53,983 nucleotides of DNA, taken from an uncultured Bacilli bacterium. GTDB taxonomy: Bacteria > Bacillota_I > Bacilli_A > RFN20 > CAG-288. Positions 7,170 to 29,647 of the stretch are shown here, piece after piece. Location: NCBI GenBank assembly GCA_944332485.1, contig CALVKB010000004.1, positions 1 to 53,983 on the forward strand, in the 5' to 3' direction. A program made the position numbers and the translations under genes. Under the pieces are notes generated by a model that saw only the letters and a program-made list of their open reading frames with translations, was not told the DNA's origin and did no database searches. The first letter of the stretch is position 1. Each line of letters starts with the position of its first letter.

Positions 7170-8970
7170 ATTATTAAAATCGGATGATAAAGTTGAAAAT
7201 ATAAAAGTTAAAGATTCCATGAGAAAATACAAAAAGTATTTTATTATGGGTCCTATTTTTAAGACTTTTGAAGCAGTTTTCGATTTGATCATCCCTTTAA
7301 TAATGAAAAATATCCTCGATACAATCTCTTCGGGAGTATTATTAACCGATAGTGCAAATTTGAAATACACTTTGATAGGTGGATTGATAATTCTCTCTTT
7401 AGGTATCCTTGGTTTTGCTTCTACGATGGTTTGCCAATATATGGCGAGTGTGGCATCTTTGGGTGTCGGAACCGATTTGAGAAACAAAATTTTCAGGAAA
7501 GTTAGTAATTTCTCGTCTAAGGAGTTTGAAAAGTTTTCAACATCTTACTTACATAATGTATTGAATGCGGATAGTGTCAATGTACAAACTGGTGTTAGCA
7601 TGTTTATCCGTTTGGCTTTCCGTGCTCCACTTCTAATTATCGGTTCATTGATAATATCTTTCATATATTCATGGGAGATTGCTCTTTTATTTGTCGGAAT
7701 TATTCCGATCATTTTGTTGATAATCTTCGTTTTTATGAATAAAGTTGCTAAGAAGTATCAAGATATTCAAAAATCATTGGATGATATAAGTACTGTGACA
7801 ACAGATTCTTTGAATGGTTCAAGAGTTATCCGCGCATTCAATAGACAAAATTATGAAACAGTGAAATTTGAAAATTACAATAATAAATATCTTCAACAAG
7901 GAAGATTGATAAGCTTCATCACAGCTTTTATCAATCCACTCACTTTTGCTGTTGTAAATATTGTGATTATCGTTATTATTTATTTGACAAAACTTGATGT
8001 TTCACAAACAGTCAGTGTTTTTTCAACTGACTTGGAAGTTACGACAATAATAACCTTGGTTAATTATCTTGAGCAGATATTCCAAGCTTTGTTGGTTGTC
8101 AGTAATTTAACTAATATATTTAACAAAGCTATCAATTCTTCAAAACGTATCAACGAAGTATTCAAAGTTGATGTTTCAATAAAGAATAACGGAGAGAGAT
8201 TAGTCAAAAATATAAATCTTGGAGATGAGATTATAAAATTTGATCACGCATATTTATCCTATGAAGATGGTGATAACTATGCACTTAAAGATATAACATT
8301 CAGTTTGAATAAAGGTGAATCTCTTGGAATAATTGGTGGTACAGGATCAGGTAAGTCAAGTTTGATAAACTTGATGATGAGATATTCCGATTGTTCAAAA
8401 GGGTCAGTTTATTATAAAGGTGAAAATATTAAAGAATACGATTTACCATCTTTGAGAAATGATTACGGATTGGTTTTACAAAAAGCTATTTTATTCACAG
8501 GAACTATAAAATCAAATATGCAGATGGCTTATGATAGTATCAAAGATGAGGAGATAACCAAAGCTTTGAAAACAAGTTTAGCTTATGAATTTGTTTCAAA
8601 ATACGATGATTATATCGAACATCCAGTAGTTGAAAATGGTAAGAATTTCTCCGGTGGTCAAAAACAACGTTTGTCCATCGCTAGAAGCTTATGCAAGAAG
8701 AATGAACTTTTGATTTTAGATGATTCAACAAGCGCTTTGGATTATCTTTCTGATTTAAATGTTAGAAAAAATATAAATGAAAACTACAAAGAATTAACCA
8801 AAATTATAATCTCACAACGTGTTTCAACTGTTCAAAACTGCGACAAGATTATCGTTATGGAAAACGGATGTATCTCCGGATTGGGAACACATGAAGAGTT
8901 ACTGGAAACAAATATCATTTACAGAGAAACTTTCATGTCCCAACAGAATGGAGGTAAGATCGATGCTTAA
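7153..8970 (+). CDS. Heterodimeric ABC exporter subunit 1 (TMD+NBD)
   Basis: Hydrophobic TM region, GGTGSGKS, FSGGQKQR, degenerate Walker B LILDDS; start may be ATG 7219. Confidence 0.9.
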   Translation: MLKKSRLLKSDDKVENIKVKDSMRKYKKYFIMGPIFKTFEAVFDLIIPLIMKNILDTISSGVLLTDSANLKYTLIGGLIILSLGILGFASTMVCQYMASVASLGVGTDLRNKIFRKVSNFSSKEFEKFSTSYLHNVLNADSVNVQTGVSMFIRLAFRAPLLIIGSLIISFIYSWEIALLFVGIIPIILLIIFVFMNKVAKKYQDIQKSLDDISTVTTDSLNGSRVIRAFNRQNYETVKFENYNNKYLQQGRLISFITAFINPLTFAVVNIVIIVIIYLTKLDVSQTVSVFSTDLEVTTIITLVNYLEQIFQALLVVSNLTNIFNKAINSSKRINEVFKVDVSIKNNGERLVKNINLGDEIIKFDHAYLSYEDGDNYALKDITFSLNKGESLGIIGGTGSGKSSLINLMMRYSDCSKGSVYYKGENIKEYDLPSLRNDYGLVLQKAILFTGTIKSNMQMAYDSIKDEEITKALKTSLAYEFVSKYDDYIEHPVVENGKNFSGGQKQRLSIARSLCKKNELLILDDSTSALDYLSDLNVRKNINENYKELTKIIISQRVSTVQNCDKIIVMENGCISGLGTHEELLETNIIYRETFMSQQNGGKIDA

Positions 8971-12194: not shown

Positions 12195-12454
12195 AAATTT
12201 TTACTTGTAATAAAAAGTTGCTAATATTAAATTTATCCCATATTTAAGACATTTTTAAATTATAATTTGAAGTTTTCTTATTCATGTTTTGATAATTCAT
12301 ATGTATTGATTTTTTAAACTAGTTTAGAGGTGAATTTATTGAATAAATATAGATTAAATGATTATATTAATATCTAATTTATATATATTAATGCCATGTT
12401 TAAAAACTGATAGTTTTCTTTTATAATAAATAGAGTAAGCAAAGGAGAAAAAAT

Positions 12455-13498
12455 ATGCCTATATATGATGTAGTCAAGTTCGAACGTGATCTTGATGATT
12501 GGTTATTGTACAAATATCCTGAAACAGAATTCAATACTAAATCTAAACTTATCGTTAGTACTAGTCAAGTTGCAATTTTGGTTCACAATGGCAAAATTGA
12601 AAAAATTTGTGAGGAAGGGAAATACAATTTAGACACCGAGCTTCTTCCTTTTGTCAAAGAATTTGTGAAGATGATGCATGGTGGAAAAAATTCTTATCCA
12701 CTTGAAATTTACTTTTTAAATAAACGTATTAAATTAGATTTTTTGTGGGGTACGACAGATCCGATTGTCATACTTGATCCTATTTACAATATTCAATTGA
12801 AAATTAGAGCAAGAGGTCAGTTGGGAATTAAATTAAATAATTATCAATTTTTCATAGAAGGTTTAGTTGGTTCATTGATGACTAATTCATATGTTTCATA
12901 TAAACAAGTTTCGGTATTTTTCAGAGGCTTATTAAATCAGAAAATTAAGAAAGTTTTATCAAGCTATATGTTGCAAAATAAAATTTCTTACTTTGAGATA
13001 AATACTCATTTAGACGAAATCGAAAAAGCATTTTTCGATGAAATTAAAGATGAGATAGTCAAATTAGGTTTTTCACTTATCAATATGAGTGTTGAATCAA
13101 TCAATGTTCCTGATGATAATTTGAACGAGTTGAATAAAATTCTTCATAAGAAAGTTGAATACGAACAATTGGGTGATAATTTGTATAGGACATCAAGAGG
13201 TTATGATGTTTTAGAAGCTGGAGCTAAGAACAATTCATCAGTTGGTTCAATAATTGGTTTAGGATTAGGCGGTGATATTGTAAATGGTTCACGTACAAAC
13301 TCAATTATTCCCAATTCACCGCAACAAGAAGCAAATGATGAAATTGTCTGTCCAAAATGTAATACAAAAGTTCCTTCTGGTAGTAAATTCTGTCCTAACT
13401 GTGGTGAAAAATTGGAAACATATTGTCCACATTGTGGTGCTAAACTTACAAGTGTTGGTAAATTCTGCAGTTCATGCGGAAAGAAACTTTCTGATTAA
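12455..13498 (+). CDS. SPFH/band-7-like domain protein with C-terminal double zinc ribbon
   Basis: SKLIV..SQVAI, WGTTDPI...DP N-terminal pattern; four CxxC pairs (CPKC, CPNC, CPHC, CSSC). Confidence 0.8.
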   Translation: MPIYDVVKFERDLDDWLLYKYPETEFNTKSKLIVSTSQVAILVHNGKIEKICEEGKYNLDTELLPFVKEFVKMMHGGKNSYPLEIYFLNKRIKLDFLWGTTDPIVILDPIYNIQLKIRARGQLGIKLNNYQFFIEGLVGSLMTNSYVSYKQVSVFFRGLLNQKIKKVLSSYMLQNKISYFEINTHLDEIEKAFFDEIKDEIVKLGFSLINMSVESINVPDDNLNELNKILHKKVEYEQLGDNLYRTSRGYDVLEAGAKNNSSVGSIIGLGLGGDIVNGSRTNSIIPNSPQQEANDEIVCPKCNTKVPSGSKFCPNCGEKLETYCPHCGAKLTSVGKFCSSCGKKLSD

Positions 13499-13510
13499 GG
13501 AGAATAAATT

Positions 13511-13999
13511 ATGAAAAGAAGTTCGATATTTTTCATTGTAACAGATGTAATATTCTTAATATTATTGATTTTATTACCTATTTTGCTACCTAACGATGCA
13601 ATAGTCAGAAGCAATTCATTATTAAGTTTATACATCGTTACTAAAGTAATTTGTGCTTTGTACTTGGTTGGTTCAATTTTCTTTATTATATTCAGCAAAA
13701 TCGCCTTTGGTATGGGAGTTGTTTTTGCTGGTACTGCTTATTTCACACAGTTGATTCCATTATTTATAAGATTGATCATCACATACGTGAATGATGAAAG
13801 ATCTGCAATAATAGGTGGTGTGACGTTATTCTTATTGTATGTCATGGTTTTATGTGTCTTTATCGGTGCAAGTTTCTATATGAACAAAAAGATGGTTAAA
13901 TCTGATGAAAAATCAGAAGGTAAGCAAACAACTGAAATCGAGAATAGTCTTGATAAATTTATGAAAGAAAATATCGATGACCAACAAGATATATTGTAA
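13511..13999 (+). CDS. Hypothetical membrane protein (~4 TM)
   Basis: RBS aaggag; four hydrophobic segments, charged C-tail. Confidence 0.75.
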   Translation: MKRSSIFFIVTDVIFLILLILLPILLPNDAIVRSNSLLSLYIVTKVICALYLVGSIFFIIFSKIAFGMGVVFAGTAYFTQLIPLFIRLIITYVNDERSAIIGGVTLFLLYVMVLCVFIGASFYMNKKMVKSDEKSEGKQTTEIENSLDKFMKENIDDQQDIL

Positions 14000-14018
14000 T
14001 AGAAGGTTTTGAATATTT

Positions 14019-14276
14019 ATGGAACAGATAAAAAAAGAATGTTCAGGTTGTGGATACACTTTAAATGAGGATATTGAGTTTTGTCCATATTGTGGAAAAG
14101 CTAATCCTTATTATGTGAAGAAATCTGAAAGTTTAACTGTAACTCAACAACAAAAAAACACATCCGAAAATATTAGTACTGAGAAAAAATCAAAATTTAA
14201 TGCATTTATTTTCATCCTTTTACTTTTGATTTGTTGGCCTATTTCCATTGTTTATTTGATTCTTACAATTAAATAA
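14019..14276 (+). CDS. Zinc-ribbon protein with C-terminal TM segment
   Basis: CSGC...CPYCG; hydrophobic C-terminus FIFILLLLICWPISIVYLI. Confidence 0.75.
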   Translation: MEQIKKECSGCGYTLNEDIEFCPYCGKANPYYVKKSESLTVTQQQKNTSENISTEKKSKFNAFIFILLLLICWPISIVYLILTIK

Positions 14277-14287
14277 AATCAAAGAAT

Positions 14288-14641
14288 ATGAAAACTGTTG
14301 CAAGTATATTTTTATTAATTTCTGCCATCGTTGCTGGTATTGCTACATGGGTGTTAACTTTTATAATTTTTGTTTGGTTCTTCGCTATGCAATCTTCTTC
14401 CATAGAAGGTACAATATCGTTCTTCATACTTTTTATTCCAGCTCTAATTTTACTTACAAGTTTAATTTTTTCATCATTTGCATATAGAAAAATTAATAAA
14501 GCAAAAAGTGCAAAGGAACTTTTTGGGTGGGGTATTATTGCTATTTTTCTAAGTGGAATTTTACCTGGAATCTTTATTTTATTGATCCAGGATAGTGAGT
14601 TACAACCATCAGAACCGAAGAATGTTGATTCTATTGATTAA
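14288..14641 (+). CDS. Hypothetical membrane protein (~3 TM)
   Basis: Three hydrophobic segments; operonic spacing. Confidence 0.7.
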   Translation: MKTVASIFLLISAIVAGIATWVLTFIIFVWFFAMQSSSIEGTISFFILFIPALILLTSLIFSSFAYRKINKAKSAKELFGWGIIAIFLSGILPGIFILLIQDSELQPSEPKNVDSID

Positions 14642-14647
14642 TAAAAT

Positions 14648-14680
14648 TATGGCTGTTAAGAACAAATCTTAATAGCCATA
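14648..14680. terminator. Bidirectional intrinsic terminator between convergent genes
   Basis: TATGGCTGTTAAGA-acaaa-TCTTAATAGCCATA flanked by A and T tracts. Confidence 0.8.
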
Positions 14681-14686
14681 TTTTAT

Positions 14687-16771
14687 TTATTTCAATAATT
14701 CTATAAGTGATGTTTTATCAATATTGTTGATAGTTAGATCAATGTAGTCTGTTATCAAATCATCAGGATTTGTCTCACTATTTTGTTGTGACATCATCTT
14801 TTTTTGATATTTAACAACATCATCTGTTTTGATGGTTTTTATATTTGCTAATTCTAAAACAGTGTTTAAAGTTAATTTGCTTTGTGCCATTTTTTCCAAC
14901 CCTTTGATAAAAAAGTCGGTATTTATATCGGATTTAGGAACCCTTTCGAAATTAGAAAAAGAAGTATTATCAAAGGTGTATATTAATTTTTTGTCAGGGG
15001 TTAGTTTAGCAATACCAAATATTATTTCTTGTCTATTATCAGTAATCTCAAGATTAAATTTCATCACAATATTATTTGGATTTACTAAACCATTGAAAGT
15101 TTTCAAATTTAATTCATCTTTATTTATTTTATTAAAATTGCACTTTTCAGAAACAGCAAAAAATAAGTTAAATGGAATTTTGAGAACATCGTTTGAAAAC
15201 AAAATATCATTGTACAAATTTAATGCCACTAAAAATGTCTCCTCTTTTTTGCCAGGAGCTAAAGCCATAATTTCAGTTGCACCATTTTTTGCATCTGTCA
15301 TATCGCCACTGAAAGCGACTTTCATATCAGTGTCGTTGATTCTTCTGTAGGAATTTTCTAAATTACACCAGCCGAAATACTGTGAAGCATTGAATAAAGA
15401 AAGGTCTAAATCTACTCTGATTTCTTCAGTTTCTTTTTTACGCTTGATATTGTACCAGCTAACACCTATTTTGAAAGAGTCTGTATTGATGTCAGAGTTG
15501 ACATTTTCAATTTCAAAAGTTGAACCACATGGGATGTTATCTAAAAATTGTTTCTCTGAAGTTGGTAAAGCATATGTCAAATTAGTTGGAATAAAAACTG
15601 TTTTATTTCCAACGTTTTCCTTAACACGTTCAACTATCTCATTTAAAATTTTTTGTTTTATGTTTGTTGCCATATCTTTATTTTTGATTTTGTTGAAATT
15701 CTCGCAGACAAAGCTTTTGTTGTTTCTGATTCTGTAAATTATTGGATCATTCTCATTGTTCAAACGATAATTGAACATGTTGTAAATTTTAATCAATTTA
15801 AAAGTTGTCGCCACTTTAATGTCTGCGTTAATTTTCAACATTGTTTTTTCATCAAAATTTTCTAAAGAGGATAATCTTTCTAATATTGGTGTCTTAAATG
15901 CAGTTTTATTCTTGTCAGCTTTCTTTCTAAGACGATTTATAATTCTGTTTGTTTCTGAGAAAGAATTAGCTTCAGTTTTCAATGCTAAAAATAAAGGTTT
16001 AAATCTTAAAAATATAGAACTAAGTTTATCTTCACCGAATAATCGGATGTAGGTTGAAAGTAAATCTTGAGTTTCATCATAATTGCTTCTTGCTTCTTTT
16101 TTTAAACTTGTGATGGAATCTTTACTTTTTATAAGTAAACTTTTACCTGTCAATCTATAAATTAAGTAGCGTAAAAATTCTTCAGGATTTTCAGGAACCA
16201 ATTTGTATATTATATAAAGACTAGTTTTCACTTCTCTATTTTCGATAGTTTCAATGTAGTTTCTCAAATCAAAAACACAAGCTAAATTTTCGATGTGTGT
16301 AATTGTAGACTGTGAAAGGGCGATGCCGGAATTTAACAATTCCAACATTGCATTGATAATTTGTTTTTGGTCCATTGGTTTTATTATTGTCAAATTTGAA
16401 TTTTCATAATCAAATTTTTGCATTTTACAATTTTCGTTTGGAATAACTGAATTAGCTGTCAAGCCAAAAGCTTCCAACCCATAGGTTGAAAAGTAATGAA
16501 TAAGTTGTTCTTCAACAAGTTGTTCATCAGTTGCATTTAAAATTTTATCCCATGTTTTATGGAAAGTATTACTCAAAAGTGCATTATCAATTCCATACAA
16601 TTTTATGGCGGCTTTAACTACTGATTTTGGTGCATCATTAAAAATAACCACACCTTTTTTTAATGCAGTTTTATCAATTTTATTGTAATCAATTGCATTT
16701 AAGTCTTCACAATAGTAAGCCTTAAAAACCATTAACAAAGCTTGTTTGACAAGATTTCCAATTTTATTCAT
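14687..16771 (-). CDS. 694-aa protein: helical, putatively Ro/TROVE-like N-region plus C-terminal TerD-like domain
   Basis: RBS aaggagag; TerD-like motifs GVSW...RVDLDLSLF and FSGDMTDA..GATE; N-terminal TFHKTW...EQLIHYFSTYG. The Ro-like assignment is inference. Confidence 0.6.
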   Translation of the reverse strand: MNKIGNLVKQALLMVFKAYYCEDLNAIDYNKIDKTALKKGVVIFNDAPKSVVKAAIKLYGIDNALLSNTFHKTWDKILNATDEQLVEEQLIHYFSTYGLEAFGLTANSVIPNENCKMQKFDYENSNLTIIKPMDQKQIINAMLELLNSGIALSQSTITHIENLACVFDLRNYIETIENREVKTSLYIIYKLVPENPEEFLRYLIYRLTGKSLLIKSKDSITSLKKEARSNYDETQDLLSTYIRLFGEDKLSSIFLRFKPLFLALKTEANSFSETNRIINRLRKKADKNKTAFKTPILERLSSLENFDEKTMLKINADIKVATTFKLIKIYNMFNYRLNNENDPIIYRIRNNKSFVCENFNKIKNKDMATNIKQKILNEIVERVKENVGNKTVFIPTNLTYALPTSEKQFLDNIPCGSTFEIENVNSDINTDSFKIGVSWYNIKRKKETEEIRVDLDLSLFNASQYFGWCNLENSYRRINDTDMKVAFSGDMTDAKNGATEIMALAPGKKEETFLVALNLYNDILFSNDVLKIPFNLFFAVSEKCNFNKINKDELNLKTFNGLVNPNNIVMKFNLEITDNRQEIIFGIAKLTPDKKLIYTFDNTSFSNFERVPKSDINTDFFIKGLEKMAQSKLTLNTVLELANIKTIKTDDVVKYQKKMMSQQNSETNPDDLITDYIDLTINNIDKTSLIELLK

Positions 16772-16813
16772 ATTACTCTCCTTTATAAAAATTTGCGTTG
16801 GAAAGTTATTATT

Positions 16814-16887
16814 AAAAAAGACGGTCGAGAAGTAATTTTACTTCTAACTGGTAGAATCTTTGACATGAGGAACTTCATTTGACCGCC
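16814..16887 (-). ncRNA. Putative Y-RNA-like stem-loop or structured leader upstream of the TerD-like gene
   Basis: 5' GGCGGUC pairs with 3' GACCGUC (one G-U, valid on minus strand only); GAAGU/ACUUC inner stem; followed by U6. Confidence 0.55.
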
Positions 16888-16904
16888 AAATTAAATTGCA
16901 ATGC

Positions 16905-16960
16905 TTAACAGAATATACAAATATCAGCAGTTTTGATGTTTGGTATATTCCAACTGTTAA
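16905..16960 (-). other. Second long hairpin at the predicted transcript start
   Basis: TTAACA/TGTTAA, GAATATAC/GTATATTC, AAATATCA/TGATGTTT nested inverted repeats. Confidence 0.55.
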
Positions 16961-16962
16961 TA

Positions 16963-16991
16963 ATTTTAAACACAAAAAAATTTAAATGCAA
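16963..16991 (-). promoter_or_regulatory. SigmaA-type promoter for the ncRNA/TerD-like gene
   Basis: TTGCAT-17 bp-TAAAAT on minus strand; start near 16956. Confidence 0.55.
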
Positions 16992-17322
16992 GTAAAAATT
17001 TTATTTTTTTCAAAAAAATTGTTATTAAACGTAAAGTCCCAAAATTAAGCATTTAATAGGATTTATTATTTATATTTTATATATATGTTAGAGATTTACA
17101 TAGAAAAAAATTAGAGAATAAATTTAAAATTTTTTTAAATTCTTGTTTGTATTTCAAAAATTTTTTAATATTCAGCCTTATTTAACCATGAAAAACACAA
17201 ATTTAAATCAATTTAATAACATATTGAAAAAGTATTTAGACAAAAAAGCTCTATTATCAGAGCTTGATGTTTTTCAAGTTAAATTTAATTTGCATTAAAT
17301 GCTTTGATATATCATGTATCAG

Positions 17323-17426
17323 TGCTACTAATTGAACACCCATTTGCTTGTTTGCTACTGAGTGAATACATTACCTGCGACTGAGTGAACATACACTTTT
17401 TTACAGGTTTTTTACAAATAGTAGCA
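17323..17426. repeat. Cluster of short direct repeats at island left edge
   Basis: tgctactaattgaac (17323), tgctactgagtgaat (17353), tgcgactgagtgaac (17376), inverted agtagca (17420). Confidence 0.6.
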
Positions 17427-17505
17427 TTATTATTACAGAAATATACCAATATTTACAGATTTTGTTGAAAAATGACAGATTTCAACAAAGATGGTGTTTT
17501 TTTAA

Positions 17506-17748
17506 TTAGTCTAAATAAGCTTCAAAATCACCAAATGAGCTGACTTTTTGAAGTTTAACATCTGGGAAAGAAGTAACAATTTGAATCTTAATTGTTTCTT
17601 TAGAAAAAGATCTACTGTTGACGATTTTTACTTTGTAATCTCCAAATGAGTCAACGAATTGAACTTTTAAATCAGGGAAAGAAGTAACAACTTTAAACGT
17701 GACTTTTTTCCCTTTGAACTGAGATAAATAACCTTTACTGTAACCCAT
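17506..17748 (-). CDS. 80-aa tandem-repeat protein resembling the 7_1 (septoil) knot family
   Basis: RBS aaggag; two 37-aa-spaced units VTSFPD.K.Q.V.SFGD; DNA repeat GGGAAAGAAGTAACAA at 17564 and 17675. Confidence 0.7.
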   Translation of the reverse strand: MGYSKGYLSQFKGKKVTFKVVTSFPDLKVQFVDSFGDYKVKIVNSRSFSKETIKIQIVTSFPDVKLQKVSSFGDFEAYLD

Positions 17749-17809
17749 AAATTTCTCCTTTTTAATAAATATATAAAATTAAGTGCACTATTTTATGTAC
17801 ATTAGTGTT

Positions 17810-18908
17810 TTATTTAAAAATCTCATCACCTTTTGTTTGAATTATGTATATCGCTTTCTCAATAAAATAGCTTACTTGTTTTTTAATTTCATCATAGTTT
17901 TGAATATCGACTTTAGGCTCAACTTTTTCGTTCCATGTATCAAAATATTGATAAACCCAGTTTCCTGAATAAGAACATGGATTTTTACTCATTGTGGTAG
18001 GATGTCCAAAGATCTCTCTTTTACTTTTTTTATCAAACGTTTTATCAAACCACTTTTCTTCAAGACCTATTTTAAAGATGTTTTCAACAGGTCCTTTGGT
18101 TAAGCCAAGGAAAAGTCTAAATTGATTGTCTTCGATTTGGACACCGATTTGTCCTTTATAATTGTCTCCACTTCCTTTTTGTAATTCAAAAGAGATTGTT
18201 GATTTGCCGTTGTGGAATGACCTAGAAATATAAAAGGTCCATCCAGGAAGGTCTTTGATCTCGTGTTCCGCTAATAATCTTAATTCTTCACATGTTTGAA
18301 CAAAATCATCAGCTTTGTTTTTTCTAAAAACATCCATTAACCTGACTTTACATAATCCTTATTATATTTTCTGACCAATAAGAAAGGCGACCAGCCGTCT
18401 CTTTTAGAGAAAGGTCCATTAAAATATTGATTGAATCCAAAACTTCGCAGTAATCATGAACAATTGATTTCAAATATTCATTATGAATATCAAGCGTTCT
18501 CAAAAAAGAGGAAATTTCATGATAAGAAATAAAAGACCATTTATCCGGTAATTCAAATGGCGGTTCTTTAATACCCGTAATTACACCTTTTTCTAAATTG
18601 GTTTTTTTACTGTATCTTTCTAGCTGTGAGCGATTAGGGTAAGACTTAATTTTATTCTCAATTACATATTCCTTGCCTTTTGAATATATAACAAGGTCTC
18701 TATTTTTATCTTCTCTCTCAATCTCAGCTTCAGAGTAAACATCGATTTCTTTAAAGAAAAAGGAGATAAGTCCTTTGCATTCTTCCTGTTTCATTAAGTA
18801 AGCCCAAAAATTTGAATGAAACAGCTCTTTTGAACCTAAAGACATAGAAAACACAGGCGATTTTCTAAGCTTCTCAATATTTTCTATAAATAATTGATTA
18901 TTTTCCAT
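17810..18908 (-). pseudogene. PD-(D/E)XK nuclease (PDDEXK_4-like) split by a 1-nt frameshift near 18361
   Basis: SLGSKELFHSNFWAYL, RE...RDLVI, VIENKIKS in 5' ORF; removing one base joins 18348-18908 and 17810-18337 into ~365 aa. Confidence 0.65.
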
Positions 18909-19896
18909 ACTTAGCAATTATCCTTTCTGCTTCTGTTTTTGCTCTTTCAATCAGAGATTGAGGTGATAAAATGGTTACGCACTCGCTGTACTGCATATAC
19001 CAGTAGAACAAAGCACTTTCATTACACTTAATATCAGCATACAACTTACCATCCTTGCTATATGTTCTGGCATTTTTACCAAACCAATCAATAACGAATT
19101 GAACGTAACTTGATTGTTCCAACAAGAATGTAGCTTTAATTACTTTTCCATCTAATAGATAGATATTGTCATTTAAATATTTAGCGATATCAAAATCTTT
19201 TACACCTTCTAATGACTCAATTGGCTTAAGCGGCCATTCATCTTCAATTTTTGGATTAAGCATGTAGTCAATTCTGAACCACGTGATTGCACGATATTTT
19301 TCGCGATAATTGCAAATCAAGAAATAACGCCCATTACTATTAGCTGAATAATACGGAGAAACAATGTAACGATAACCGTCCATTTTGGTGTAAGGTTTTC
19401 CGTTTTCATCAAACGTTAAATATTGGAATGAGAGTCTTTTTCCTCTACGTTTGGCTTCTTCAATCAGTTCTAATGTATAGAATAATTCCTTGTTCTCTGA
19501 ACGATTGATTTCGTTACCTTTATAAATAAAGTTGTAGTCTTCTCTTTGATATCTGCTCAGACACGAGTTGAGTTTTTTAGAGAGTTCGGCTGCTTGCTTA
19601 CCACTAATTGACTTACTAGAAAACAAAGAATCAACAATATATCGAATCTCGCTATTATTAAAACTACGTGATAATAATGCATAGCCACCTCTAGGGGACT
19701 TGTTGATATCGTAGTCCAGTTCCTGTAATAGCGATATAGAAAAAGCTACCGATTTGCGTTCTAATTCGATTCCATACAATTCATCAACTTTATTAATGAT
19801 GTCTTGCTGTGTTAGAAAATGATCCTCATCAGAGTATTCTTCCAACACTTTTAAAATCAATAAAATTGAAGCTTTCTTATTTTCAATCATCAACAT
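18898..19896 (-). CDS. WYL-domain transcriptional regulator (wHTH-WYL-WCX)
   Basis: ILKVLEEYSDEDHFLTQQDI wHTH, LSFQY, VSPY...GRYFLI, FRIDYM, VIDWFG, QYSECVTILSPQSL; start ATG 19896 or 19890. Confidence 0.9.
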   Translation of the reverse strand: MLMIENKKASILLILKVLEEYSDEDHFLTQQDIINKVDELYGIELERKSVAFSISLLQELDYDINKSPRGGYALLSRSFNNSEIRYIVDSLFSSKSISGKQAAELSKKLNSCLSRYQREDYNFIYKGNEINRSENKELFYTLELIEEAKRRGKRLSFQYLTFDENGKPYTKMDGYRYIVSPYYSANSNGRYFLICNYREKYRAITWFRIDYMLNPKIEDEWPLKPIESLEGVKDFDIAKYLNDNIYLLDGKVIKATFLLEQSSYVQFVIDWFGKNARTYSKDGKLYADIKCNESALFYWYMQYSECVTILSPQSLIERAKTEAERIIAKYGK

Positions 19897-19929
19897 AATT
19901 ATAGACCTTAATGCTCGGCATTGCACTGA

Positions 19930-20334
19930 CTACTTATTAACATGGTTCAGCAACAAGCATTTTCCTTTTACTTCTAGCAATTCTATTGATCCATCACTAT
20001 ATTCCACTTCTGTGCAATAATCCTCGTGATCAATCCCCGTTAATTCCTTAATAATTGGAACAGGATCAACATCTTCGCCTTCAAAAAGTGCAATAAATGT
20101 TTCTGGATTATAGTACTCACCATCAACTCTACAGTCATTTAAATCAATATCAACTTGTACTAAATGTTTCTTTTCGTTTTTTTCATACTCTCCTTCAAAT
20201 AAAGAAGAAACGCTACAGTTAGAAAGCCTCGCACAGTGAGCAGCGATCTTAATAAAAGGAATATCAGCATAATCGTTTAATGAATAAGTGGCAAAATCCA
20301 CATATAACCAATTGACATCTCTTGCGGTTCTCAT
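19930..20334 (-). CDS. Hypothetical acidic protein
   Basis: RBS aaggag; operonic between AAA protease and WYL genes. Confidence 0.7.
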   Translation of the reverse strand: MRTARDVNWLYVDFATYSLNDYADIPFIKIAAHCARLSNCSVSSLFEGEYEKNEKKHLVQVDIDLNDCRVDGEYYNPETFIALFEGEDVDPVPIIKELTGIDHEDYCTEVEYSDGSIELLEVKGKCLLLNHVNK

Positions 20335-20344
20335 ATTTTTCTCC

Positions 20345-21646
20345 TTAAGCTAATCCTATAATGTTCAGAACCTCAAACGATTTGAGATTTTTCTTTTTAA
20401 ACAATTTGTCGGCCAATTTGATGAGCAACTTTTTGTTTTTCTTGAGATAGTGTTTTGTTTCTTTTTCGCATCTTTTCAGGAGCTTTTCTATTTCGATTTC
20501 ATTATGACGTCTTCTTTCTTCTGTTTCGTTTCTAATATATGGTTTGACTTCTGGAAGAGTATTAGCGCAAGATAAGAAGCCAACTCTGTTTATGGCTCTT
20601 GCTGCGATTTTATATGCTCTTTGCATATCTGAATCACACCCATCGGATCCTTTTTTAAAAATCAACTTTTCAGCAATTAAGCCTGCACAACTAATTTTTA
20701 TATCGGCGATTAATTTATCATGTGGATTGAACTCTCTATTGTTTTCAACAACAGACAAATATCCACCGTTATTGTTGATTGTTAATCTTCCAATCTTAAA
20801 GAATTCTGAGCAAGCTTTTGTCATTAAGGCGTGGCCAGCTTCATGAACTGCGTGCTGATAGATATCACTGTTACTACTATTTTTTACCTGATTAGTTAAA
20901 TTAAAAATTGAGTCATAGATCATTTCTGAAGTTATATTTTCAAAACCATTTGTAAGAAAAACTTCATTAACAATTGATTTAATCGTTGCACAAGGCACAT
21001 CATCTAAAGCTAATTCAAACTCTTCATTAACAAAATCAGATGGAAGAGTAACTCCAAGATCTTTAAAAAGCTTTTTAAGCAATAAAACTGCTTCTTTTCC
21101 TGTAGGAGATGGAATTCTTAAAACTTTTTCAAGGCGTCCACTTCTCATTAAAGGCTCAGGAATTTCATAAATATGATTGGTAGCACATAAAACCAAAATG
21201 TCAGATTCAGAACTAACACCATCGAGGTTATCTTGTAGGACTCTTTCAGCTCTACTGTCCTTGCCAATAAGAAGATCTAATTCATCAATCACAATAACAA
21301 CATGTCCTGTTTCTTTAGCTTTTTTGAACATTTCTTCTAATCCTTCAGAAACATTGTCCATGTCACCTCTAAAGACAAATGTCGGTGCCTCAGCATATTT
21401 AATTGTTTCTTTTATTAATAAAGACTTGCCATTGCCTGGATCACCATACATAAGAATGCCTCGAGGAATATCAACTCCTCTTTTTTTGTATTCCTTTGAT
21501 TCTTTAAACCATTTCAAAACCGAGATTAAGACTTCTTTTTGCTTTTGATGGCCAATTACCTTTCCTAAGGGTTCTTCAGAATCATTAACCTTTTGAGCAG
21601 GAATCAAATCATATGGTAATGTCTTTTTAATATCAATTTCTTCCAT
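20345..21646 (-). CDS. Soluble FtsH-like AAA ATPase / M41 zinc metalloprotease (no TM anchor)
   Basis: RGILMYGDPGNGKS, VIVIDELD, ATNH...LMRSGRLE, HEAGH, GLIAEK, GCDSD. Confidence 0.85.
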   Translation of the reverse strand: MEEIDIKKTLPYDLIPAQKVNDSEEPLGKVIGHQKQKEVLISVLKWFKESKEYKKRGVDIPRGILMYGDPGNGKSLLIKETIKYAEAPTFVFRGDMDNVSEGLEEMFKKAKETGHVVIVIDELDLLIGKDSRAERVLQDNLDGVSSESDILVLCATNHIYEIPEPLMRSGRLEKVLRIPSPTGKEAVLLLKKLFKDLGVTLPSDFVNEEFELALDDVPCATIKSIVNEVFLTNGFENITSEMIYDSIFNLTNQVKNSSNSDIYQHAVHEAGHALMTKACSEFFKIGRLTINNNGGYLSVVENNREFNPHDKLIADIKISCAGLIAEKLIFKKGSDGCDSDMQRAYKIAARAINRVGFLSCANTLPEVKPYIRNETEERRRHNEIEIEKLLKRCEKETKHYLKKNKKLLIKLADKLFKKKNLKSFEVLNIIGLA

Positions 21647-21654
21647 AAAACTAA

Positions 21655-22299
21655 TTACTCCTCTTCTTCGTTGGTAACCTTTTTATTTGGTTTCTTTTTA
21701 TTAATTCCTTTGTCGTATTGTTTGCAATCTTGGATGATTTTATCCTTTTCTTGAGGAGAATAATCCATAAACATGAATGTTTCTGGGTTAGTACTTTCTA
21801 AGTAATTGAATGTCCTTGCAAAAAGTATTGAAATCATTCTTCGTACATTAGGTGATTTATTGTTTGAGGTTCCTTCCACTATTGATTTGAGAAAAACATG
21901 ATCTTCATCTTCTTTTTCGTGGAACTCAAAATAGCCATTCTCCCTATCATAAGCTCTGTTTAAACCATGTTTTCTGGTATTAAGACAAAATCTTTTTCCC
22001 TCAAATTCTTTATAGATGCCATTGTAATAAGACAATAAGTTGTTGTAATTATCATTTACATGAAACTCATTTTTATCTGGACTAATAAAGACATCAATTG
22101 TTCCTATTTGGTTGTGAAGACCATACATTAAATGTGTTGCATCATTGAATTCACGAATTAATTTGTTTTGGAACAACTCTTCGTATTTACTCTGTATAAC
22201 TTCTGGATCTTCCGAATAATTATTCTTTTTTTCAACATTCCATATACCATTTCTTACATTAGCAATCCATGTCATTATTGTTTCAAATTTGAATTTCAT
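21655..22299 (-). CDS. Hypothetical protein, first gene of the protease-WYL operon
   Basis: RBS gaggt; 214-aa ORF, 8 nt upstream of the AAA gene. Confidence 0.7.
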   Translation of the reverse strand: MKFKFETIMTWIANVRNGIWNVEKKNNYSEDPEVIQSKYEELFQNKLIREFNDATHLMYGLHNQIGTIDVFISPDKNEFHVNDNYNNLLSYYNGIYKEFEGKRFCLNTRKHGLNRAYDRENGYFEFHEKEDEDHVFLKSIVEGTSNNKSPNVRRMISILFARTFNYLESTNPETFMFMDYSPQEKDKIIQDCKQYDKGINKKKPNKKVTNEEEE

Positions 22300-22387
22300 T
22301 TTTCTTACCTCGCACCATTATGATACAAAGACCAATGTCCGTTTTTCCGTGCATAGCAAAAAGTACTATAATTGCGAGGAAACAAAG

Positions 22388-22625
22388 ATGAAAAACATTA
22401 AAAACTATGTTATATCAGCCAATATTGATGAAAAAATGAATAAAATTGTTTTAGAAATTAAAAAAAATACGTACAGGTATGTACGAAATTAAGGATTGGG
22501 ATTCATGTGTCGAAACTGCTTTTTTGATTCTAGATAAGATTCTAGAAAACGGCTTAACACCATTAATGTTGGATACATTTATCGAATCATTTTCAAGAAA
22601 CGAAAAAACTAGTTTTGATGCCTAA
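22388..22625 (+). pseudogene. Small divergent gene (~78 aa) interrupted in an A8 run
   Basis: RBS gagg, ATG 22388; A7 instead of A8 at 22460-22467 gives MKNIK...KIRTGMYEIKDWDSCVETAFLILDKILE...FDA*. Confidence 0.45.
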
Positions 22626-23083
22626 AAATATATGATTTGTATTTTTCTTTTATTGTTGAGTATGCTTTTTTGACCGCAGTAGCGGATTTATTAGTTGCTC
22701 TCCCTATTCCTCTAAGAGAAATGTAAGGATTTTTCAGTCTAAACGACAAATAGAACAACTGCTTTTCTGATAGTGTTTTTAAAAAAGCCTCTGCACTCCT
22801 ATCTTCTTCTTGCCAATTTAGAGCATCGTCCACTTTTTCTGAAGAAGCAAGTATGAGCCCTTCAAAATTAAAAGCATCCATTGAAAGACAGTGATATCGA
22901 TTTCTTCTTAACATAGTCAATTCTTGCTTAACGTCATTCGACAAACATAAGAAACCATTCGGCTTTCGTATCTTCAGGATAGTATCTGGTTCTTTTTCCA
23001 TTCTCTAAACGCCATTCAATTCCAATAGGTTCTTTTGTTGTTTTGTTTCTTAGTATTTTTACCCCAGCATAATAATCAATCAT
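22609..23083 (-). pseudogene. Sigma-70 region-4-like HTH protein of mobile-element type, frameshifted near 22935
   Basis: AAAGGAGG RBS before ATG 23083; 49-aa ORF stops at 22934; second frame carries RRNRYHCLSMDA..EG and LSEKQ...SLRGIGRATNKSATAV. Confidence 0.6.
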
Positions 23084-23158
23084 TTCACATCCTCCTTTAA
23101 TTGAATATTACAATGAAAAAGCCCACTACTCAGTTTTTCAACTTTTCATGGGCAATAA

Positions 23159-24604
23159 TTATGCTTTGCTTTCTTCTTTGGTTAAGCGTTCCATTATTTT
23201 CTGGAAAGCTCCTTCGTAGATTCTCTTAATGCCGTTATATTCAACAGTAAGTTGTTCAAGAGTCATGCTGGTGTAGTCTTTTTTCAAATGAGCAGAGCTT
23301 TCCTTAATAAAGTCGTTTAATTGTTTATAGACTAAATCCTTTGTTTTGAGGCTCTTCATCTTTTCTCTTACACCAGAATTCATGATTTCACCAACCATCA
23401 TATTCATCTGATTGATCATGTTCTCACGCTCAGTAATGTAAGTTCTGACTTTAATTGCATCAGCTTCCGACAAAGCGTTCTTGTCAACTTGTAGAAGTTC
23501 GTCAATCGAATAGTTAAGACTATTGTCTATCTTATAAAGATAGTTGATATGGATTGGAGTTGCAAACTTCTTCATTGAAAGCAGCGCTTCCTTAGACCAG
23601 CCTTTCTCAAAGCCGTTCTTAATTAACGAAAGCCCAACTTCAGCAAGTTCCTTAGAATCTTTTCTGTTGAGAACATATTCCACTACTTTTTTAGCGGTCT
23701 CATCTGATACAGCTAATAAGATTCTCACCAAAGATCTTGTTTTGTATTCATTAATCCAGCCTTTAGATAGCAATTGTTCGATAGCTTCTTCGCATCTGGC
23801 TGAGTTAGATTTAACAAAGTCATATTTGCTTTCTTTGAAGAAATAGATTCCAAACACATTAATAACGCTTGTGACTTTAATATATTCATTAAAAATCGAA
23901 CCTAAGTTGTTATCTTTATCTTTGAAGATGAATCTCTCTTTTAGCATTGCATTAAGAACGGTTTGAGATAAAGCATTCCATTGGCCACCAGTTATTTCGC
24001 TAGTAATTTCGCAAGGATAAGCTGAAATATTCATGCTTTGGCCTTTGTAGACTTTATCAAACTCTTCTTTGTCGATTGGAAGGAACTTATTGTCATCTAA
24101 ATTAACAACTATTCTTTCTTCAGAGAAGATAGCATCATATACATCTCTCTTGGTTGTACCTGGTTCGCTTTCAAAGCTGATGTCCAAGAAGGTGGAATTC
24201 TCATCTTTTGGCATCATGAATTGCTTAAGCAATTCTTGATTATCAAAGAGGTTTCCTTCAAAGACCTTGTTTCTAAATCTAGAAGCATTAAACATCTCGT
24301 AATACTTGAAGTGATCAGAAACCATCATAGTTACTGGATATAAGGAATTTTCGATAATTCCATCAATTTGACTTTCTGTGAATTCAGAAATTTCCTTATA
24401 TAGTCTCTTGAAGTGTGAATTAAGAGAACCTTGGCCACAGATTTCTTCAATATAATCGAATGCTTCTTTTTTGGTTTTAGCATTCTTGATTAATGAAGCC
24501 ACTAAATATGAATCGTATGTCGCTTTTTGATAAGTATCATAACGAAGCATTACTTTGTAAAAGGTATTAGGCAAGCTTAGAGCCACTCTTGCTTTGATTT
24601 CCAT
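23159..24604 (-). CDS. Hypothetical 481-aa partner of the helicase
   Basis: Overlaps helicase 3' end by 38 nt, own RBS aaggag; helical/coiled-coil C-terminus. Confidence 0.8.
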   Translation of the reverse strand: MEIKARVALSLPNTFYKVMLRYDTYQKATYDSYLVASLIKNAKTKKEAFDYIEEICGQGSLNSHFKRLYKEISEFTESQIDGIIENSLYPVTMMVSDHFKYYEMFNASRFRNKVFEGNLFDNQELLKQFMMPKDENSTFLDISFESEPGTTKRDVYDAIFSEERIVVNLDDNKFLPIDKEEFDKVYKGQSMNISAYPCEITSEITGGQWNALSQTVLNAMLKERFIFKDKDNNLGSIFNEYIKVTSVINVFGIYFFKESKYDFVKSNSARCEEAIEQLLSKGWINEYKTRSLVRILLAVSDETAKKVVEYVLNRKDSKELAEVGLSLIKNGFEKGWSKEALLSMKKFATPIHINYLYKIDNSLNYSIDELLQVDKNALSEADAIKVRTYITERENMINQMNMMVGEIMNSGVREKMKSLKTKDLVYKQLNDFIKESSAHLKKDYTSMTLEQLTVEYNGIKRIYEGAFQKIMERLTKEESKA

Positions 24605-27071
24605 AATCGATTTCTCCTTCTTTATATCTAATCATCTTTCCTGCTGAGGAAATGTATTCAATGATGTCTTTGAAATAGTGCCTATCCATTCCACCACTGA
24701 TTTTCATGTTGATTTTGCTTAAAGTGATCTTATTTCCGAAAACAATGAGTTTGTCTCTTGAACGAGACATGGAAACATTGATTCTTCTAAAATCGTTTAA
24801 GAAGTTTCTTTGAGTTGCATCAGTAACAACTGTATTGACAAGAACAACATCACATTCTTTCCCCTGAAAAGCATCCACGGTATCAATATCAAATGATTTG
24901 AATAACTTTTTAGCTTCATTGATTAGAGCTATGTTGTTCTTTTGGAAGTGATTAATTTGAGCAGCATATGGGAAGATAGCAGCAACAGACATCTTCTCTG
25001 GATTAATCGCTGTTTTCATTAAATCTTTCAATATAGCAACAGTTGCGTTGATTTCTTGGACATTGAATCTAGAAGTTCCGTCTTTTGTTTCTTGACCACC
25101 TAACACTTCAACAAAAACTGCATCTTTGTCTTCAAATGCTGGGTTAGTGAAATGAACTTTTTCAGGCCTAACTTCTTCTCTTCTTCCAATAAGCTCACCG
25201 TTATAGAACATGTTATAACATGTAAGGACTTGCTTAACTGATCGATAATTCTCATTTAAGAGCACTAATCTATTACTTTCTTTAGCTTTGGATAAAACCT
25301 TGGCGAAGACTGATTGTTCATACATGGCTTGCATTTTTTCAAACATATCTTCGTCATAGCTTGGGAGCTCTTTGACATCATCTTTTGTAAATTCAAGGAG
25401 AGGAGCTAATTGGAAGTCATCACCAACCATGATGATTCTGCTTACATATGGAAGATATCTGAGAACTTCTGTAATTGGGCATTTACTGACTTCATCAATA
25501 ATAAGCCAGTCATAGCCCTTAAGAGTTTCAAGGCCTTTCTTACCAGCGATAGCACTTGTTGTGGTTGTAGCTCCGATAACTGAGAATTCGCTATCAACTT
25601 CCTCAGAATATCTGAATCTAAACTCACCATTAAAGTTAGCCATAGAAAGAGCCATCTTCTCTTTTAACTTTTTATTGGTCGATCTTTCATTATGAGCAAG
25701 GAACTTTCTGCCCCATGTTTTATATAAGGTTTCATCGATGTATTCTTTTGAATACTTGTTACGTCTATTGGTAATTCTATTAGGAATAATAAGGTCATTA
25801 TTCTCCATCAACTTATCCAAAACATTGTCAATAGCGATGTGGGTTTGAGAAGAGATAATAACTTTTTCGCCTAATTCCTTTGTAATGTATTGAGTAATCG
25901 CATTAATGACATGCGTTTTACCTGTTCCTGGTGGCCCTTTAATAAGACTGACAGGAGAGCCATCTATTGCCATCAAGAAGGCTTTTCTCTGTGATTCATT
26001 TAAGCCTTCCATGTACTTCTCTTTAGTCCTTGAAGTTCTAGAGACATGGTTAGGCATTTTTGTGTCGCCAATTAAGTATTCCAATAACTCTGAAGCTGCA
26101 CCTGTGGCACCTTGATTGATTAATCTTAAAGAGTTATCGATGGACTCAATTTTGATTTTTTGGCCCATATCATAAAGGTTTAGATATGAATAGTCTTCTT
26201 CGTAATCAGCAGAGGACTTCATTTCTCCAGAAAGGATAACTTCGTCTTTGACGATTCTGATGTTAACTAATAAGAATTGTTTAAGGTTTTTAGCGGCAGC
26301 TTCAGTAACAAAGTTATAGTTACTTAAGTAAATGTTGTCATCACCACATCTTTTAATTCTTGCGAGAACTTCCATACCACCTTCAATGTGTACGTCTATG
26401 AGTTCTCTGACCTTATCTTTAATGTCGTTGCTTAAGGTGTCGTATTGAGTAACGTCAAATTTGTAGCCTTTAATGACTCCGTTTTGGTCCTTTACTTCTT
26501 GCTTGAAGTCAGAATCAAACTCTTTAACATCAGCAGGAACAAAGAAGTAAGACTCCGTTTTACTGACTACAGGATATGTAATATTGTTGTTGAGTTCGTC
26601 AGATAACTTCTTATAGAAGTTGAATATTTCCATGAACTCATCAAATTGACCGATATTATATTCAAATTCGTTTGAGTTAGCTAAGATATTTAATGCTTCT
26701 CTAGTTTGGTCTATTTTCATTGGAGGATAACCAGCATAAACGAATTTAGTTCTAGTTAATACACCTTTAAGTGTTTTGAAATCTGTTTCTTCTTCAAACA
26801 CCTTTTTAACGAAGAACATTCCGCCAAACGGAGGTCTGAAATCGCATTGAAGGTTTCCAACAAATCCAACTATTCCGCCACCTTTTCTTTCGTAACATAA
26901 TTTCACGTTGTCGATAGATTTTATGAATCTAGCATCTTTCGCATCGAATTTGATGGTCTTTTTGTTGGTGTTGATTTTGACATCATGATAAGTGTCATCT
27001 CTTAATTGTCTAATCCACTCTTGATCGAAATCCGGGAATGAATCTAATTTAAGTTCAAGTGCTAATGCCAT
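24567..27071 (-). CDS. Superfamily-1 Upf1/DNA2/NAM7-like helicase (AAA_11/AAA_12) with ~350-aa unknown N-terminus
   Basis: LNESQ, GPPGTGKT, SQTHIAIDN, IIDEVSK, VGDDFQLAP, NYRS, TVDAFQGKE, RRINVSMSRSR; RBS aggaggagg. Confidence 0.92.
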   Translation of the reverse strand: MALALELKLDSFPDFDQEWIRQLRDDTYHDVKINTNKKTIKFDAKDARFIKSIDNVKLCYERKGGGIVGFVGNLQCDFRPPFGGMFFVKKVFEEETDFKTLKGVLTRTKFVYAGYPPMKIDQTREALNILANSNEFEYNIGQFDEFMEIFNFYKKLSDELNNNITYPVVSKTESYFFVPADVKEFDSDFKQEVKDQNGVIKGYKFDVTQYDTLSNDIKDKVRELIDVHIEGGMEVLARIKRCGDDNIYLSNYNFVTEAAAKNLKQFLLVNIRIVKDEVILSGEMKSSADYEEDYSYLNLYDMGQKIKIESIDNSLRLINQGATGAASELLEYLIGDTKMPNHVSRTSRTKEKYMEGLNESQRKAFLMAIDGSPVSLIKGPPGTGKTHVINAITQYITKELGEKVIISSQTHIAIDNVLDKLMENNDLIIPNRITNRRNKYSKEYIDETLYKTWGRKFLAHNERSTNKKLKEKMALSMANFNGEFRFRYSEEVDSEFSVIGATTTTSAIAGKKGLETLKGYDWLIIDEVSKCPITEVLRYLPYVSRIIMVGDDFQLAPLLEFTKDDVKELPSYDEDMFEKMQAMYEQSVFAKVLSKAKESNRLVLLNENYRSVKQVLTCYNMFYNGELIGRREEVRPEKVHFTNPAFEDKDAVFVEVLGGQETKDGTSRFNVQEINATVAILKDLMKTAINPEKMSVAAIFPYAAQINHFQKNNIALINEAKKLFKSFDIDTVDAFQGKECDVVLVNTVVTDATQRNFLNDFRRINVSMSRSRDKLIVFGNKITLSKINMKISGGMDRHYFKDIIEYISSAGKMIRYKEGEIDYGNQSKSGSKLA

Positions 27072-27085
27072 GTTTCTACCTCCTC

Positions 27086-27830: not shown

Positions 27831-27879
27831 TATTATTATAAATAATTTATTGCGCCTGATAAAGAAAAAATCTCTGTTT

Positions 27880-27929: not shown

Positions 27930-27939
27930 TTGAAACAAT

Positions 27940-29643: not shown

Positions 29644-29647
29644 AAAA

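Follow-up and report, generated by a model that had tools for sequence, protein, structure and literature searches.

The window analysed here is the 53,983-nucleotide (nt) stretch of contig CALVKB010000004.1 (assembly GCA_944332485.1), derived from an uncultured Bacilli bacterium. On its minus strand it carries a small open reading frame (ORF) at 17506..17748, which is intact, starts with ATG, and encodes a protein of 80 amino acids (aa) with a mass of 9.1 kDa and a pI of 9.5. Based on the evidence given below, this protein is almost certainly a member, of the short form, of the Septknot or 7_1-knot family (PF19647), and the terms knot gene and knot protein are used for it throughout. A GGAG ribosome-binding box, read from the sequence, lies 6 nt before the ATG (17755..17758, minus strand). 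Decoding with table 4 was considered and dropped, as the genes here contain no in-frame TGA. The neighbours listed in a first-pass annotation of this DNA were all found on the same strand: a WYL regulator (18898-19926), a PD-(D/E)XK nuclease (18348-18917), and an AAA+ ATPase joined to an M41 peptidase (20345-21646).

The knot protein is internally repetitive. The segment VTSFPDLKVQFVDSFGD (residues 21-37) recurs as VTSFPDVKLQKVSSFGD (residues 58-74), and at this 37-aa lag 14 of 43 positions match, a figure reached by none of 5000 shuffles. At the corresponding lag of 111 nt the DNA of the gene is 52% identical to itself, compared with 27-39% at control lags of 45, 100, 110, and 112 nt. The strongest period of the protein is 11 aa (18 of 69 positions identical; 0 of 5000 shuffles as high), and five loop motifs are present, SFPD at residue 23, SFGD at 34, SRSF at 45, SFPD at 60, and SFGD at 71. 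As 37 equals 11 + 11 + 15, the 37-aa "duplication" belongs to a five-fold repeat in which one unit is longer than the others. The duplication with a 37-aa (111-nt) period noticed in the first-pass annotation is therefore real as a period, but its underlying unit is 11 aa long and occurs in five copies. The protein is basic, with 13 lysine and arginine residues against 8 aspartate and glutamate residues (net charge +5), and for this reason a role as a DNA mimic was dropped.

Membership in the family of the 7_1 knot is indicated by both sequence and predicted structure. A phmmer search against all PDB chains returned one real match, 8iwa_A ("Uncharacterized protein UU089.1"; E 5.1e-38), in which residues 1-80 of the knot protein align with residues 10-89 of the chain. 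Identity to Q9PR55/UU089.1, for which the entries 8iwa, 8iwb, 8iwc, and 8jrm are available, is 81% across the full length; the two proteins share the same five loop motifs, and they are equal in length once the disordered N-terminal 9 residues of the Q9PR55 chain are set aside. The host lineages differ, and the genome of the window reads TGA as a stop in these genes. An AlphaFold2 model built with 45 homologues (predicted local distance difference test score, pLDDT, 85.7) has six strands. In Foldseek, this model superposes on 8iwa_A with template modelling (TM) scores of 0.96/0.97 and a root-mean-square deviation of 0.7 A over 79 columns, and on the nuclear magnetic resonance model 8jrm ("7_1 knotted Q9PR55") with a TM score of 0.94; no other fold was found by Foldseek at better than E 2.5. 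Homologues that are 88-90% identical to the knot protein carry the precomputed annotation PF19647.5, the UniRef name of a homologue starts with "7(1) septoil knot domain-co…", and the nearest ESM Atlas clusters are assigned to PF19647 Septknot (0.98). A Pfam scan at E<=10 gave no PF19647 row in the Pfam copy used, which may be a gap in that copy rather than evidence against membership. The likeness to the Ureaplasma 7_1-knot protein, which the first-pass annotation had proposed, is thus borne out by the phmmer match, the identity, and the model. Because its model superposes at 0.7 A on a chain with an experimentally determined knot, the knot protein should take the deeply knotted, five-fold pseudo-symmetric beta fold of the solved structure, with 7_1 topology.

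It was reported that a 7_1 knot is predicted for Q9PR55 and a 5_1 knot for its 112-aa homologue P73136 (PMC9278004). The structure of Q9PR55 was subsequently solved, and the protein was found to be monomeric, stable in urea, and degraded by ClpXP very slowly, about as slowly as the most resistant known substrate (PMC10840475). According to the same source there are more than 150 homologues with SFPD loops. SFPD-type loop tetrapeptides and pseudo five-fold symmetry are described there as traits of the family, and both are present in the knot protein. In the accessible text of PMC10840475, the terms phage, defen-, restriction, and nuclease occur zero times and no function is given; likewise, no function for Q9PR55 or the septoil knot was met in the accessible portions of the literature on it, and no paper combining knot and anti-phage terms was among the matches listed.

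Family loci were collected by peptide patterns of the window protein, a retrieval that favours close relatives. The sample comprised 80 loci from one-genome-per-species contigs (114 of 388 candidates confirmed), a further 80 from metagenomes (115 of 488 confirmed), and 1 from viral contigs, and dereplication of the 161 loci by their flanking DNA left 119 clusters, of which 29 are short-form and 90 long-form. Their ORFs are longest-ORF calls under table 11, so that short or recoded genes may be missed. PADLOC was applied at E<=1e-8 to the 87 genes within two positions of the knot gene in the 29 short-form loci; an opposite-strand 72-aa ORF in L003 was skipped as presumably spurious. The PADLOC "PDC" families are candidates and not proven systems.

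A specific defence protein is encoded by the adjacent gene in 18 of the 29 short-form loci, and these partners fall into eight families. They are PDC-S26, of the PD-(D/E)XK type (L001, L086, L088, L095, and L097); mREase_II, of the PvuRts1I/SRA type (L087); the GIY-YIG protein UzuA of Uzume (L002, L003, L006, and L116); HEC-05, which is GmrSD/BrxU-like (L089, L092, L094, and L113); PDC-S01 (L004); PD-T4-3 (L005); PDC-S11 (L098); and a fragment of PDC-S72 (L072). All 18 partners lie on the strand of the knot gene, with gaps from -26 to 356 nt that are usually 5-120 nt and no longer than 70 nt in 12 cases, and the order of knot gene and partner varies among loci. BLAST homologues of the window nuclease were found in three further loci on short contigs (L083-L085), and a later locus from another genome (L163) has a PvuRts1I-like homologue directly downstream of its knot gene. 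At the second position out, PADLOC recognised six WYL regulators (L001, L086, L087, L088, L095, and L096), an ABC-type ATPase in L005, L006, and L008, a helix-turn-helix protein in L005, capP in L007, and PDC-M37B/DolB in L113. Since these next-out matches are to WYL, generic, or non-effector models, the effectors are concentrated at the position adjoining the knot gene.

The locus L094 links this arrangement to the protein of solved structure. Its knot ORF, which is identical over 80 residues to residues 10-89 of 8iwa, comes after ybaB and recR and is separated by 45 nt from the downstream gene for a 584-aa HEC-05/GmrSD_N protein (E 4e-150). The protein identical to the crystallised one thus abuts a type IV restriction-like enzyme. 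HEC-05 was described as BrxU-like with antiviral activity (bioRxiv 10.1101/2024.01.29.577857). The gene of Q9PR55, as seen in L094, has its HEC-05/GmrSD-like partner downstream, whereas in the window the PDC-S26-like PD-(D/E)XK partner lies upstream of the knot gene and under a WYL regulator. HEC-05, Uzume, PD-T4-3, the PvuRts1I-type mREase, and PDC-S26 are all catalogued as single-gene, but are found here beside a knot gene; the knot protein itself has no PADLOC match, and a small knotted companion is not in the PADLOC definitions of these partners.

In the window, the knot gene follows a WYL-domain regulator of 342 aa (18898..19926, minus strand; Pfam WYL E 1.2e-4; PADLOC WYL PDLC01652 E 2.7e-20), whose ORF end overlaps the start of the PDC-S26-like nuclease ORF. 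The WYL regulator is directly upstream of, and co-directional with, the gene in the adjoining effector slot in the window and in L001, L086, L087, L088, L095, and L096. The WYL protein is 85-91% identical in L001, L072, L086, L087, L088, and L096 and 60% identical in L095, and the knot proteins of those six loci are 84-96% identical. The gene between the WYL and knot genes varies among a PDC-S26-like nuclease, a different PDC-S26, mREase_II, and a 447-aa protein of unknown family. This last protein (447/450 aa; L096:5600-6943 and L072:3969-5321) has no family match and is a candidate for a new defence effector. WYL regulators ahead of interchangeable defence genes are the arrangement named in the title of PMC9122601, where BrxR/CapW-type regulators are treated, and the window cassette is similarly built, with WYL and then a variable defence effector. 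To judge from WYL models, the WYL protein of the window may be of the BrxR/CapW type; a conserved 80-aa terminal gene is not described for that arrangement in the part of PMC9122601 accessible.

The nuclease gene of the window is split. Its N-terminal piece of 189 aa (18348..18917, minus strand) is of the PD-(D/E)XK type (Pfam PDDEXK_4 E 5e-7; PADLOC PDC-S26 E 2.8e-13), and its C-terminal piece of 175 aa (17810..18337, minus strand) was identified by alignment to the intact 364-aa orthologue in L001. In tblastn, residues 1-191 of that orthologue match 18908-18351 and residues 185-356 match 18355-17840, in two frames; the two segments overlap in the frameshift zone at 18351..18361 (minus strand). 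The window thus lacks an intact single PDC-S26 ORF of about 350-400 aa. In a contig from a run of another study (X5), one base is missing at 18361, and this would join the two pieces in a single frame, so the break is regarded as strain-specific. The runs X2 and X4 belong to the probable source study, and their contigs match the window at 18361. The knot gene is intact in all four runs compared.

These genes belong to a minus-strand block that spans 14687 to about 28722. In the order of transcription, it starts with genes for a MkoA-like helicase, a 481-aa protein, a 130-aa protein without family, a 214-aa protein, the AAA+/M41 protein, and a 134-aa protein, and it ends with the WYL regulator, the PDC-S26-like nuclease, the knot gene, 734 base pairs without a convincing ORF, and a gene for a 694-aa protein of unknown family. 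L001 and L096 share the whole run that begins with the 214-aa gene and ends with the knot gene, and L086 and L087 share it from the AAA-M41 gene onwards. On the downstream side, the region 16700-17505 has no protein or DNA similarity to any locus, and a lipoprotein gene present there in relatives is not present in the window. Since resemblance to relatives stops past the knot gene, this gene closes the conserved cassette.

Past its stop codon, three direct repeats of TTCAMTYAGTMGCA spaced 23-30 nt apart lie at 17323..17389 (minus strand), where 0.18 matches would be expected and none of 100 shuffles gives three. A terminator-like hairpin followed by a T run, which is a consensus match only, lies about 240 nt past the stop codon (17246..17265, minus strand). 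The repeats and hairpin could be a regulator-binding array or an element of the 3' untranslated region, and a sequence like this region was not found in any related locus.

Further upstream in the block, the 134-aa protein (19930..20334, minus strand) has homologues in L001, L086, L095, and L096 and a short fragment match in L088. Upstream of its gene is that of the soluble, FtsH-like AAA+ ATPase with a fused M41 peptidase (433 aa; 20345..21646, minus strand; Pfam AAA 6e-20, Peptidase_M41 2e-17), which matches NCBIfam FtsH_fam at E 1e-36, below the cutoff of that model, and PADLOC IetA at E 2.6e-12. The first conserved gene of the block encodes the 214-aa protein (21655..22299, minus strand), with about 72% identical homologues in L001 and L096. 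For the 134-aa and 214-aa proteins, no family match was obtained with Pfam, PADLOC, PHROG, or NCBIfam. The trio of AAA+/M41, 214-aa, and 134-aa genes (19930-22299) recurs in L001 and L096, with two of its genes in L086, and may be a separate uncatalogued defence-type module with weak similarity to the IetA/IteA-like ATPase. The superfamily 1 helicase (834 aa; 24567..27071, minus strand) resembles MkoA of Mokosh (PADLOC MkoA E 3e-76; Pfam AAA_11 and AAA_12) and is followed by the overlapping gene of the 481-aa protein without known family (23159-27071 together, minus strand); beside this helicase, no partner of the phospholipase D (PLD) type was recognised. At the far end of the block, a transposase fragment (27940-28161) and short repeats lie in 27880-28810, and copies of the repeats occur at many contig ends of the genome of the window (C3, C9, C11, C14, C19, C31, C37, C40, and others). 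This region is an assembly-breaking insertion sequence (IS) element, and it adjoins tRNA-Leu (29130-29212). Elsewhere in the window, a tRNA-Ile called by ARAGORN at 8328-8414 is inside the ORF 7153-8970, has no Rfam tRNA match at the gathering score, and is probably false. When the DNA of 12400-31700 was compared with 20 relatives, the island genes were not found save for generic AAA similarity, the IS fragment, and tRNAs; the flanks were mostly unmatched too, and an insertion is not defined by this comparison.

The knot protein stays 70-96% identical while its partner is exchanged, and in a tree of 23 knot proteins, in which support is weak on an 80-aa protein, the clade of the window mixes PDC-S26, mREase, and 447-aa partners, and the HEC-05-linked proteins do not form one clade. 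Near-identical knot proteins occur with different partners, as in L088 (PDC-S26) and L096 (447-aa protein), and L087 with its mREase falls within the PDC-S26 clade. A stable pairing of one knot lineage with one effector lineage, of the kind that marks toxin-antitoxin or immunity pairs, was not found, the partners being of eight families. Given the unrelated folds of the partners and their mixing in the tree, a partner-specific interface is unlikely.

The knot gene is also a rare and patchy accessory gene. It is present in one copy in the 1.13-Mb genome of the window and in 5 of 399 genomes of the class, the own genome included; in a Clostridia sample it was found in 1 of 399 genomes, the centre genome only. 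The pairs are located after recR (L094), nrdG (L113), or an nrdF-like gene (L098), or adjoin a MobV relaxase (L002) or an IS3 transposase (L100). In viral data, one distant family locus was found in IMG/VR, and the knot protein has weak similarity to phrog_6462 (E 3e-8).

The family as a whole is larger and consists of two forms. An exhaustive search of representatives gave 410 family clusters at E<=1e-3, and a word-index search gave 707 (clusters defined at 90% identity). Short forms of about 80 aa are known from Bacillota, Fusobacterium, and Bacteroidota. Among 121 long representatives (>=95 aa), 94 have a hydrophobic N-terminal segment before the first motif and 64 have a Cys pair, and most have six motifs; such a segment occurs in none of 28 short representatives (<=90 aa). 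From these sequence features, the long forms look secreted and the short forms look cytoplasmic. Long secreted relatives such as P73136 share the SFPD-K-V-Q repeat unit with the window protein, and homology between them is detectable. They differ in their length of 100 to 150 aa or more, in their neighbours, which are housekeeping genes or peptidases and not defence genes, and, in the case of P73136, in the simpler predicted knot (5_1 instead of 7_1; PMC9278004). Secreted trypsin-like peptidases with FG-GAP repeats are encoded 24-49 nt downstream of signal-peptide-bearing long forms in six Myxococcota loci (L021, L023, L025, L033, L034, and L036), S33-type alpha/beta hydrolases directly downstream in spirochaetes (L027, L056, L059, and L071), and an S9 peptidase upstream in L073. 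The distance to the downstream peptidase or hydrolase in the Myxococcota and spirochaete loci is 3-101 nt. Such neighbours hint that the role of the secreted long forms may have to do with hydrolases.

The long forms served as a control for the neighbourhood of the short ones. At 74 of the 90 long-form loci, 142 adjacent genes were scanned, with any PADLOC match in 10 of the 74 loci and a specific defence neighbour in about 1. Almost without exception the matches were generic domains, and they comprised DEAD and RecG helicases, nucleotide cyclases (5), an ABC ATPase, ankyrin repeats, RNase T, and one PDC-M21C, and Pfam assigned the long-form neighbours to transporters, dehydrogenases, and other housekeeping genes. 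By the Fisher test, the difference is 18/29 versus 1/74 for specific neighbours (p 1e-11) and 20/29 versus 10/74 for any match (p 9e-8), but these values are too favourable, since related loci do not count as independent and the control loci come from other phyla and habitats. As the long forms sit in housekeeping neighbourhoods, the defence clue is not family-wide: the defence-like setting of the first-pass annotation applies to the window and to 18 of 29 short-form loci, but not to the long forms.

Taken together, these observations are best explained by a cytoplasmic knot protein that acts as a partner-independent accessory alongside anti-phage nucleases, an explanation that, as a whole, we consider evenly balanced between right and wrong. 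The protein is read as partner-independent since its partner is swapped while it barely changes itself, and an accessory co-expressed with nucleases is favoured since the partners all attack invading phage DNA. A functional tie between the short knot protein and these nucleases appears somewhat probable from gene arrangement; that it would be a partner-independent helper of them is proposed tentatively, as a possibility on the doubtful side. In the mechanism envisaged, the knot gene, which closes a cassette of WYL regulator, PD-(D/E)XK nuclease, and knot protein within a defence-type block, would code for a very stable, non-enzymatic binding module that is presumably co-expressed with the nuclease. 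The binding module would act on something shared by all these systems, either nucleic acid or a factor of the phage, for example an anti-restriction protein, and would not serve any single nuclease as its dedicated subunit or antidote. A further, rather unlikely extension is that the knot protein is a portable component of immunity in which an unfoldase-proof knot lets a tiny binding module survive infection. Such a module might draw off phage anti-restriction proteins as a decoy, or might modulate DNA-targeting effectors in general, and it might pass from one unrelated nuclease to another, either together with regulators such as WYL or in their place.

Several points weigh against the accessory role. 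Adjacency is not function, the ligand proposed is a guess, and no catalytic or known binding motif was identified in the knot protein. By tblastn, there were 0 matches in 50,697 phage records (INPHARED) and 0 in 72,556 plasmid records. Eight of the 29 short-form loci (L007, L008, L009, L010, L091, L096, L100, and L103) have neither a defence neighbour nor a homologue of the window nuclease. The contrast with the long forms is unmatched, since the control loci come from other phyla and habitats, and its p values are inflated by the relatedness of loci. As long secreted relatives occur among housekeeping genes, the basic role of the domain need not concern phages. Finally, the combination of a broken nuclease and an intact knot gene in the window is at least as compatible with an independent role as with that of a helper.

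Three of the eight loci (L007, L008, and L103) form a separate setting, context B, in which a gene for a 194-aa protein is found by the knot gene with RuvC and V-ATPase genes nearby. In three dereplicated loci, 5 nt separate the end of the gene for this protein of about 195 aa (L008:9409-9996; L103:6412-6996) from the knot gene. The family has 57 homologues with an invariant FHDEH..P..CR..K.EDR pattern, none of which carries a Pfam domain and only one of which is named by its source, as "hypothetical protein". No match to the protein was found in Pfam, NCBIfam, PADLOC, or PDB sequences, and its AlphaFold2 model (pLDDT 95) has no fold match (Foldseek best E 0.7; structure search best Z 4.5). 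A likeness to the phage T5 SciA endonuclease (Z 4.1) is within noise and was set aside, as was the HNH-like appearance of the FHDEH motif, an unproven impression. The protein is possibly an undescribed nuclease-like fold.

Other explanations of the pairing were considered. The knot protein could be a passenger, that is, a small stable protein with another role or none in mobile defence-rich DNA, where adjacency only reflects the tight packing of islands. The rarity and patchiness of the gene, its intactness beside a frameshifted nuclease, the housekeeping surroundings of its long relatives, and context B, where it is tightly coupled to a protein of apparently undescribed fold near RuvC and V-ATPase genes, are all consistent with this. 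However, effectors are concentrated at the adjacent position and not one gene further out, eight partner families with 18 of 18 in the same orientation are hard to obtain from random island neighbours, and pairs are also found away from larger islands, as after recR in L094; a passenger is therefore judged unlikely. A dedicated two-gene system, in which the knot protein restrains the adjoining nuclease in the manner of an immunity protein or antitoxin, or activates it, would account for the adjacent and co-directional genes with their mostly short gaps, and for the occurrence of knot-HEC-05 and knot-UzuA pairs at different chromosomal places, as if moved as units. Against it, the partner folds are unrelated (PD-(D/E)XK, GIY-YIG, GmrSD DUF262/HNH, PvuRts1I-SRA, and AAA_14 ATPase), near-identical knot proteins stand beside different partners in varying gene order, and a hyper-stable protein is the opposite of a labile antitoxin and, being basic, is no DNA mimic. 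We regard such a system as improbable.

The stability of the fold is also the basis of the suggestion, made in the first-pass annotation, that the knot jams AAA unfoldases, being an undegradable substrate that stalls or titrates the FtsH-like AAA+/M41 protein of the island or an unfoldase of host or phage. The slow degradation of the 81%-identical homologue by ClpXP (PMC10840475) agrees with this, and the AAA-M41 gene lies three genes upstream of the knot gene in the window and in L001, L086, L087, L088 (as a fragment), and L096. Nevertheless, AAA-M41 homologues occur in only 5 of the 29 short-form loci (L001, L086, L087, L088, and L096), all in the clade of the window; most pairs, that of L094 included, are without one, and no degradation tag or adaptor motif was identified in the knot protein, so that this suggestion is very improbable. 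As for the functional clue drawn from gene position, the recurrent partner is a DNA-targeting nuclease and not the AAA protease. Small size, great stability, disulfides, and secretion are typical traits of peptidase inhibitors, and an inhibitory role could be extrapolated from the secreted long forms with trypsin-like, S33-type, and S9 neighbours. These cases come from few related clades among the 90 long-form loci, most of which have housekeeping neighbours, and the short form lacks a signal peptide and Cys pair and has nucleases as its recurrent neighbours, which leaves inhibition of peptidases extremely improbable for it.

Among the knots of solved proteins, 7_1 is the most complex, and it is studied purely as a curiosity of folding and mechanics. 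The fold described here is not new, but the recurrent pairing of its short form with anti-phage nucleases, including that of the protein in L094 identical to the crystallised one, appears to be. The pairing makes the function of the 7_1 knot experimentally approachable and is the first testable clue to its purpose. The 80-aa gene is ignored by current catalogues and may alter the behaviour of several defence systems listed as "single-gene". If the knot protein is indeed a portable component of immunity, a first biological function would be found for the most complex protein knot known, and a new class of defence accessory would be defined.

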